From assembly GCF_036507355.1 (NCBI RefSeq), contig NZ_AP027877.1: a stretch of DNA of 64,000 nt, one strand, 5' to 3'. Source of the DNA: Escherichia coli (GTDB taxonomy: Bacteria > Pseudomonadota > Gammaproteobacteria > Enterobacterales > Enterobacteriaceae). The first letter of the stretch is position 1. Each line of letters starts with the position of its first letter. Made by a program: the position numbers. This document shows, in pieces, positions 21,001-24,000 of this stretch.

Positions 21001-24000
21001 TAAATGAGTTGCGGTAAATGTTCCACCGTAGATTTCGCCCAGGTAATCCGTAATTTTCTGTTTCATGTTGCCTTTCCGTGGTAGCGGTCCCATGAAACGA
21101 GAGACTACTCCGCAGAAAATAAACTGTCAATTGAGCACAAGGGTTTTAGTCACGCAGGAAATCATTTTTTACCAGGGAAAAAGCGTATTTGTGAGCTGAC
21201 GCAAATAATCTATAGGGATGTAAATAAGGTGTGACAGAAAAAAACGGCGCATAAGCGCCGCTCATGGTGAATTCTTTTAACCTTTGACCTTCGGCATTGC
21301 GATGTCTTTCAGGCCACCGGCGTTCTCAACGTGGGTATATCCCATCTCGCTAAGGATCTCTTTTGCCTGCCCGGACTGGCGTCCGGCATTGCAATACACT
21401 TTCACGGTGTCGTTTTTATCCGGAACGGCGGTGGCAATGCGTTCTTTCACTTCCTTCAGGGGAATATTGATGGCCCCCTGAACGTGCTCCTGCTGATACT
21501 GCTCTGGAACACGAACATCGATCCAGTGTTCAGCGGCGAAAACGGGCAGTGAAAACACCAGTGCCAGAGCAAGTAAGCCTTTTTTAAACATGTAAGCGTC
21601 CTTCTATGGATGAAAATTGCCATCCATTATACGCCTGAGATTTAACAATTTTTGCGAAACTCCCCTCACCTTTTATAACGCTGTGCCAGTTTATTGGCAG
21701 CCCGACTTAACAGCGGTTCCAGCGCCACAGCCAGCAACATTTTCAGCGGTCGGCGAGCAACTGATTTTATCGCCCAGCCCGCCACACCCGCCGGGCCATA
21801 GCGCAGTGCGGTAAGAAGTACCAGCTTGCCTGCTAATTTGAAACCAGGCTTCACCTTTTGCCCGGCCTGTTGCCAGCGAGTATTCATAACTTTCCTCACA
21901 GTTGACGGAAACGGCTACGTAACGTGAATGTATCGGAAGTGACATAACGTTCCATCTCGCGTAAACGCGTTTCACTTGCCGCCAGTTCACGGTCGACTTC
22001 ATCCAGCAATTCACTGCTGGAAGGTAGCTGCTCACCAAAAGCCATGTTGTCCGGCATTGGATCAAGCGCAAATGACAAAATGATGTAAGCAACCAGGGTA
22101 AACAGCGCCAGACCGAAGAAAATCGACAGCACCACCAGGATACGCACCAGTTTTACCGGTACATCAAAATAGTTGGCAATCCCGGCGCAGACGCCACGGA
22201 CCATGCCCTGCTGTGGAATACGCCATAATTTTTTATTGAGATTAATGCCCGCCATTAGCGATCCCTCCAGTTCGGATGTTCTGCATCAAGAATAGATTCC
22301 AGCGCCTGAATACGTTCGCGCATCCGTTTTGCTTCATCAGCCAGTTGCGCTAATCGCTGCTGCTCACTTTGCGACAATTCACTGCGACCAGAACGATTGC
22401 TGTAATGCAGCCATAACCAGATCGGTAAAACAAACAGCACAAAAATGGTTAATGGAATAGCCAGAAATAGCGCGCTCATAAGTACTCCTTAGACGATGAG
22501 CGGCGGCGCTTTCGGACGCCGCCTGGATGTTATTATTGATTGTCTTGCTTCATTTTGGCTTTTAATTGTGCCAGTTGCTCGCTTATTGCATCATCGGCTT
22601 TCAGTTCGGCAAACTGATCGTCCAGCGATTTTTGTTTACCGAAGCTGTGGCTTTCTGCTTCCGCTTCCATCTGGTCAATACGACGTTCGAAAGATTCGAA
22701 ACGAGCCATTGCTTCATCCAGTTTGCCACTGTCCAGCTGACGACGCACATCGCGCGACGAGTTTGCCGCCTGATGGCGTAACATCAATGCCTGCTGGCGA
22801 GCGCGTGTTTCGCTCAATTTGTTTTCCAGCTCGCCAATCTCTTTCTTCATGCGTGCCAGCGTATCGTCCACCAGCGTCACTTCATGTTCCAGGGACTTAA
22901 TCAGATCGGTCAGTTTCTGTTTTTCAATTAACGCAGCACGCGCCAGGTCTTCTCTATCTTTCAGCAGTGCCAGTTCGGCTTTTTCCTGCCATTCAACTTC
23001 ACGCGCCGACGCTTGTTCAATGCGGCGAGTAAGCTGTTTCTTTTCCGCCAGCGCACGCGCCGAAGTAGAACGCACTTCAACCAGCGTGTCTTCCATTTCC
23101 TGGATCATCAGACGCACCAGTTTCTGCGGATCTTCCGCTTTCTCTAACAGAGCGTTGATGTTGGCATTCACGATGTCGGCAAAGCGAGAAAAAATACCCA
23201 TAATGTTGTCCTCTTGATTTCTGCGTTCAGGATTGTCCTGCTGAACTGTTAATACAATTTGCGTGCCAATTTTTTATCTTTTTGATTTATAAAGATCTGA
23301 TTGAAGAATCAACAGCAACATGCCAGGATGAATTAGCGAATTACACTAACAAGTGGCGAATTTCATCATGGCAGAATACAAAGATAATTTACTTGGTGAG
23401 GCGAACAGCTTTCTCGAAGTGCTGGAACAGGTTTCGCATCTCGCACCGCTGGACAAACCGGTGCTCATCATCGGCGAACGCGGCACCGGTAAAGAGCTGA
23501 TCGCCAGCCGCCTGCATTATCTCTCCTCCCGTTGGCAAGGGCCGTTTATTTCCCTTAACTGCGCGGCGTTAAATGAAAATCTGCTGGATTCCGAACTGTT
23601 TGGTCACGAAGCGGGGGCGTTTACCGGTGCGCAAAAACGTCATCCAGGGAGATTTGAACGTGCCGACGGCGGTACGCTATTTCTTGATGAACTCGCTACA
23701 GCACCGATGATGGTGCAGGAAAAATTATTGCGCGTGATTGAGTACGGTGAACTGGAGCGCGTTGGCGGCAGCCAGCCGTTGCAGGTGAATGTGCGGTTGG
23801 TATGCGCGACGAATGCCGATCTCCCGGCGATGGTCAATGAAGGTACTTTTCGCGCTGACCTGCTCGACCGCCTGGCTTTTGATGTTGTGCAACTGCCACC
23901 ACTGCGCGAGCGCGAAAGCGACATTATGTTGATGGCGGAACACTTTGCCATCCAGATGTGTCGGGAAATCAAGCTGCCTCTGTTCCCGGGTTTTACCGAG

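Follow-up and report, generated by a model that had tools for sequence, protein, structure and literature searches.

The Sigma-54 Promoter of pspA in an Escherichia coli psp Locus and Its psp-Typical GT at the -12 Element

Introduction

The closest described counterpart of the element considered here is pspAp of Escherichia coli K-12, a promoter that depends on sigma-54, PspF and IHF and is read divergently from pspF. The spacer between the two genes holds the UAS, followed by the IHF site and then the sigma-54 promoter (PMC11720261, PMC3709507), and pspA is served by two UAS (PMC3709507). It has been published for the identical sequence that PspF is inhibited by PspA in unstressed cells, that membrane stress lifts this inhibition, and that enhancer-bound PspF also represses its own sigma-70 transcription; binding of PspF and IHF at the enhancer is what represses pspF (PMC3709507). 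The sigma-54 closed complex cannot open without an activator, and transcription of pspA is known to need sigma-54. With an rpoN-complemented reporter, the pspA promoter fired only when sigma-54 was present and stress from the pIV secretin had freed PspF to act, and no activator-bypass transcription was seen at pspA in vivo (PMC4551910).

Two groups of relatives frame this promoter. The other PspF-dependent promoter of E. coli and Salmonella, that of pspG, likewise has TTGGCA at -24 and TTGTA at -12 (OS40 in PMC4591121; PMC3844500); it belongs to a separate locus, has a single UAS, and is induced about 20-fold as against 100-fold for pspA (PMC3709507). Consensus promoters of the TGGCAC-N5-TTGCW type, such as glnAp2, norV and hypA, share with pspA the -24 GG, the -13 G, the 10-nt spacing and an enhancer-binding AAA+ activator, whereas they have C at -12 where pspA has T. 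Unlike the activators of these consensus promoters, PspF lacks a regulatory domain, its control being exerted in trans by PspA, according to PMC7175178. Here we describe the pspA promoter in a stretch of 64,000 nucleotides from E. coli (hereafter the window), compare it with these systems, and consider what its -12 element may mean.

The Promoter Element and Its Genes

The window contains a single copy of the 17-mer TTGGCACGCAAATTGTA, at 23253-23269 on the minus strand. Shuffled sequences lead one to expect none, and this unique exact match is identical to the published E. coli and Salmonella sites. A previous sequence-only reading had reported the same 17-mer, rightly on the minus strand, but placed it 20 nt away, at 23233-23249; on that strand the interval reads ACAGTTCAGCAGGACAA, runs across the predicted pspA start from -7 to +10, and lacks a -24/-12 element. 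The -24 element is TTGGCAC (minus strand, 23269-23263), and the -25/-24 GG dinucleotide at 23266-23267, which forms part of the TGGC-N8-TG pattern used below, is present in its TGGCAC context. The -12 element is TTGTA, in which the G is kept and the consensus C is replaced by T, leaving the -13/-12 dinucleotide (23254-23255) as GT and the GC of TTGCW absent; the same replacement is given in PMC3041696. The two dinucleotides stand at the canonical spacing of 10 nt (TGGC-N8-TG). Calling the elements canonical thus suits the GG and the spacing and overstates the -12 element.

On both sides the element is framed by the genes expected of a psp locus. On the plus strand lies pspF (23368-24345), which encodes the sigma-54 enhancer-binding activator of 325 aa, an intact AAA+ protein with a DNA-binding domain, and is divergent from pspA; its product matches the equivalog NF008622 over its full length (residues 1-325) with 680 bits against a cut-off of 529. 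The minus strand carries pspA (22533-23201; equivalog NF007974, 444 bits), the first gene of the operon and the effector and negative regulator of PspF, followed by equivalog matches to pspB (22255-22479), pspC (21896-22255), pspD (21666-21887) and pspE (21277-21591). None of the six psp ORFs is truncated, and the operon is intact. PspB, PspC, PspD and PspE are identical to the K-12 proteins, PspA differs by a single substitution (E82D), and PspF by Y192H and R212H; both histidines are found in other E. coli, and H192 also in most other genera checked. The locus as a whole is 98.4% identical to that of K-12, and the genes rpoN, ihfA and ihfB are located outside the window.

The same sequence has been bound and listed as a promoter in several studies. 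In the ChIP-seq study of Bonocora et al. (2015), TTGGCACGCAAATTGTA is the sigma-54 site OS15 upstream of pspA, flagged in EcoCyc as experimentally confirmed, with 41 nt between the predicted start and pspA (PMC4591121). Zhao et al. (2010) list aaatTGGCACGCAAATTGTATTaaca as the pspA promoter among known sigma-54 promoters (PMC2831329), the Salmonella pspA site is identical in sequence and bound (PMC3844500), and gSELEX placed holoenzyme binding in the pspF/pspA spacer (PMC8743547). Hence the view that a sigma-54 promoter of pspA lies between the divergent genes is borne out by the flanking equivalogs and by published binding to the identical 17-mer, and the comparison that the sequence-only reading had proposed, with the published pspA promoter, gives identity to E. 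coli K-12 over the 17-mer. We identify the element, with near certainty, as the sigma-54 (RpoN)-dependent promoter of pspABCDE in an E. coli-type psp locus. It is an already known promoter, and is better labelled a GG/GT, psp-typical variant.

The Upstream Control Region and Its Conservation

Upstream of the core, the best-conserved block among 18 Enterobacteriaceae abuts the pspF start codon and is taken, from its conservation, as the PspF enhancer (UAS; 23322-23370 on the minus strand, about -80 to -128). It contains the direct repeats ATTCGCCA (23354-23361, -119 to -112) and ATTCGCTA (23334-23341, -99 to -92), putative PspF sites that lie 20 bp apart and would fit a two-UAS PspF enhancer. 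For the limits of the PspF footprint at pspA we follow what Jovanovic and Model (1997) reportedly gave. Between enhancer and core there are two IHF-like matches to the consensus WATCAANNNNTTR on the minus strand, each at 12 of 13 positions: AATCAAAAAGATA at 23275-23287 (-45 to -33) and AATCAGATCTTTA at 23290-23302 (-60 to -48). In the 18 Enterobacteriaceae compared, the AAATCAAT block at the first is nearly invariant and the AATCA block at the second is kept in most; the -24/-12 core with its A-rich 5′ extension forms a conserved block as well.

Compared with K-12 pspAp, nothing functional differs: the 17-mer, the spacing, the 41-nt leader and the divergent pspF are the same. The pspF-pspA spacer equals that of K-12 MG1655 apart from one base, T at 23332 where K-12 has C. 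This position, -90, belongs to the enhancer block and comes just after its ATTCGCTA repeat on the downstream side; the rest of the block is identical to K-12. The T is common to another E. coli genome and E. albertii, and on this comparison the C of K-12 may be the minority state. The sequence-only reading had taken the motif to confirm that the locus is regulatorily intact, which a motif alone cannot do; with six full-length psp ORFs and with enhancer and IHF regions that match K-12, the conclusion does stand.

Of 5426 complete E. coli genomes, 5421 carry the 401 bases that surround the site, annotated as pspF and pspA. The 65-nt core (-48 to +17) occurs in 5403 of the 5426 and is at least 99% identical in 4219. 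Some 5400 hits to this promoter region were obtained in all, and six of them are on records labelled plasmid rather than chromosome.

Beyond the species, pspA loci were taken from 120 gammaproteobacterial species and the promoter was called by TGGC-N8-TG only, a pattern blind to the -12 base. Every one of the 116 regions that span 120 nt or more has it upstream of pspA, where shuffles give 3.2; since the pattern itself dictates the GG and the -13 G, their invariance shows the universality of the pattern only. A groundwater gammaproteobacterial MAG (L046) stands apart: with a conserved PspA N-terminus and at least 120 nt of upstream sequence, it alone among the fetched loci has no promoter-proximal TGGC-N8-TG, and its single match, about 230 nt upstream, looks like chance. 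Judging from its upstream sequence, this pspA homologue may be outside sigma-54 control.

The pspA Start and Leader

The promoter is in sense orientation to pspA. By the rule that transcription starts 19 nt downstream of the motif centre (PMC4591121), the +1 is predicted at the A in position 23242 on the minus strand, 41 nt from the ATG at 23201, in agreement with the distance given in that study. The rest of the predicted 41-nt leader covers 23202-23241 and includes a Shine-Dalgarno sequence, GAGGA (23213-23209), that is invariant in 18 Enterobacteriaceae.

A small candidate hairpin, CAGGA-CAA-TCCTG, lies at 23240-23228 on the minus strand, about +3 to +16 of the leader. The E. coli hairpin is no stabler than shuffles (z = 0.25), and RNAalifold applied to 15 Enterobacteriaceae leaders returned two consensus pairs without compensatory change, the hairpins being out of register between genera. 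Most other Enterobacteriaceae leaders have a GGGC-NNN-GCCC hairpin with variable loops, and Pectobacterium, Budvicia, Dickeya and one Pantoea have longer or stronger ones (-8 to -14 kcal/mol). Loci with such a hairpin in the first 30 nt after the predicted start include L009, L012, L015, L047, L058, L068, L090 and L120, while the leaders of Vibrio, Shewanella and Pseudoalteromonas have no obvious hairpin. An Rfam scan of 21000-24600 gave no match in the psp region; between pspF and puuE (24355-24397, minus strand) it gave a weak naRNA4 match (24.7 bits against a gathering threshold of 59.5, E = 0.19), which may be a repetitive, REP-type element.

The Base at -12

Barrios (1999), as cited in PMC4551910, gives the share of sigma-54 promoters with a conserved C at -12 as 96%. 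Among the E. coli ChIP-seq sites tabulated in PMC4591121 this C is found in 38 of the 40 intergenic sense sites that do not belong to psp, and among all 42 intergenic sense sites only pspA, pspG, hydN and ygeW have another base; the probability that both PspF promoters fall within these four is P = 0.007. The tally of the gammaproteobacterial pspA promoters is the reverse: A in 49, T in 41, G in 18 and C in 8 of 116 promoters, a set that overlaps mostly, not fully, with the 116 regions of the motif-presence test. Set against each other, C in 8 of 116 pspA promoters and in 38 of 40 non-psp sites give a Fisher value of 6e-26 with kinship ignored. The base differs even within genera, T, A and G being found in five, five and four Shewanella and G, T and A in 12, five and three Vibrio promoters.

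C at -12 is seen in four of five Citrobacter genomes; Superficieibacter, Enterobacter sp. Ag1, Moellerella and Enterovibrio contribute one genome each. The four Citrobacter promoters with C and that of Enterobacter sp. Ag1 also lose a T of TTG (GTGCA or CTGCA).

That psp promoters carry GT in place of GC was stated by Huvet et al. (2011; PMC3041696), and the idea that the -12 deviation is new was rejected for this reason. What the 116-promoter sample adds is only that outside Enterobacteriaceae the -12 base is as often A or G; PMC3041696 mentions neither these variants nor the Citrobacter reversion. For a psp promoter, T at -12 is normal and, since the deviation is typical of the psp class, it does not count against function. 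The sequence-only reading had named the absence of conserved GG/GC dinucleotides as the sign that would speak against the promoter: the GG is present and the C is missing. Such a textbook test wrongly half-fails a genuine pspA promoter, for the want of a -12 C is characteristic of psp promoters.

Alternative Readings

Could the motif be a chance resemblance to the consensus, without promoter function? Allowing at most one mismatch, TGGCAC-N5-TTGCW has two matches in the 64 kb against 3.83 ± 1.91 in shuffles, so that the motif class is no commoner in the window than expected, and consensus enrichment was dropped as evidence. The other match, TGGCACGGCGTTTGCG (37920-37935, minus strand), has one mismatch, lies antisense within sapD (37527-38519, plus strand), is not tabulated in the main text of the ChIP-seq study of sigma-54 in E. 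coli (PMC4591121), and probably arose by chance. Because a consensus match alone does not rise above chance, the identification rests on position, conservation and published binding. The pspA site shares its exact sequence with a promoter that is bound in ChIP-seq and whose function has been characterised, all 116 species have the motif upstream of pspA where 3.2 would be expected, and it has the right orientation and distance to pspA with the gene of the cognate activator adjoining. We therefore give a chance match next to no credence.

The remaining alternatives grant the site and change what drives or is driven. One holds that a sigma-70 promoter in the spacer also, or mainly, drives pspA, as in Yersinia, where work cited in PMC3041696 places an extra sigma-70 promoter upstream of the psp operon. 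For E. coli as for Salmonella, control of the operon is entirely sigma-54 dependent, pspE excepted (PMC3041696), activity of the pspA promoter was undetectable without pspF (PMC7229158), and the spacer here matches K-12 but for one base; a simple -35/-10 scan of the pspF-pspA spacer found no sigma-70-like site on either gene's strand, that of pspA included, and the Yersinia arrangement is very improbable here. Somewhat less improbable, yet still unlikely, is a double role in which the poised sigma-54 holoenzyme drives pspA and also dampens the divergent sigma-70 promoters of pspF across the shared 166-bp spacer. At certain E. coli loci sigma-54 does repress sigma-70 promoters that overlap with it (PMC4551910), the intergenic region considered here has three annotated promoters of pspF (PMC3041696), and sigma-54 is described in PMC4591121 as occupying its sites in a transcriptionally inactive state. 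Against this, the autoregulation of pspF has been ascribed to the binding of PspF and IHF at the enhancer (PMC3709507), every sigma-54 motif tied to local repression has the -12 C that is missing here (PMC4551910), and the same scan found no sigma-70 promoter for pspF in the spacer.

Discussion

Taking the element as the sigma-54-dependent promoter of pspABCDE, its working can be outlined from what has been published and from its likeness to K-12. Sigma-54 RNA polymerase binds the -24 GG (23267/23266) and the -12 GT region (23255/23254), as published for the identical sequence. PspF, made from the divergent gene at 23368-24345, would bind the enhancer repeats as a hexamer at about -80 to -126, IHF would bend the DNA between enhancer and core (about -33 to -60), and ATP hydrolysis by PspF would open the complex, with transcription beginning near 23242 and a 41-nt leader ahead of pspA. 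For the window, the binding of PspF and IHF, the opening and the start are inferred, on the grounds of its identity to K-12, the conservation seen and what is generally known of sigma-54 activators.

For annotation, the pspA promoter is a useful anchor in the window, a stretch of E. coli-type chromosome that runs from the ycjM end through psp and puu to sap.

A C at -12 has been linked to keeping basal transcription in check, in work cited in PMC4551910, and a tuning role for its replacement at psp promoters is therefore conceivable. It is a tentative suggestion, and one we hold to be rather doubtful, that PspF-dependent promoters are a subclass of sigma-54 promoters selected against C at -12. 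If so, a weaker "lock" at -12 could suit an activator that is always active unless held by PspA, and it could allow basal synthesis of PspA for the negative feedback, or faster opening on stress. The novelty would then lie in the "anything but C" pattern beyond the enterobacteria, together with a functional reason for it.
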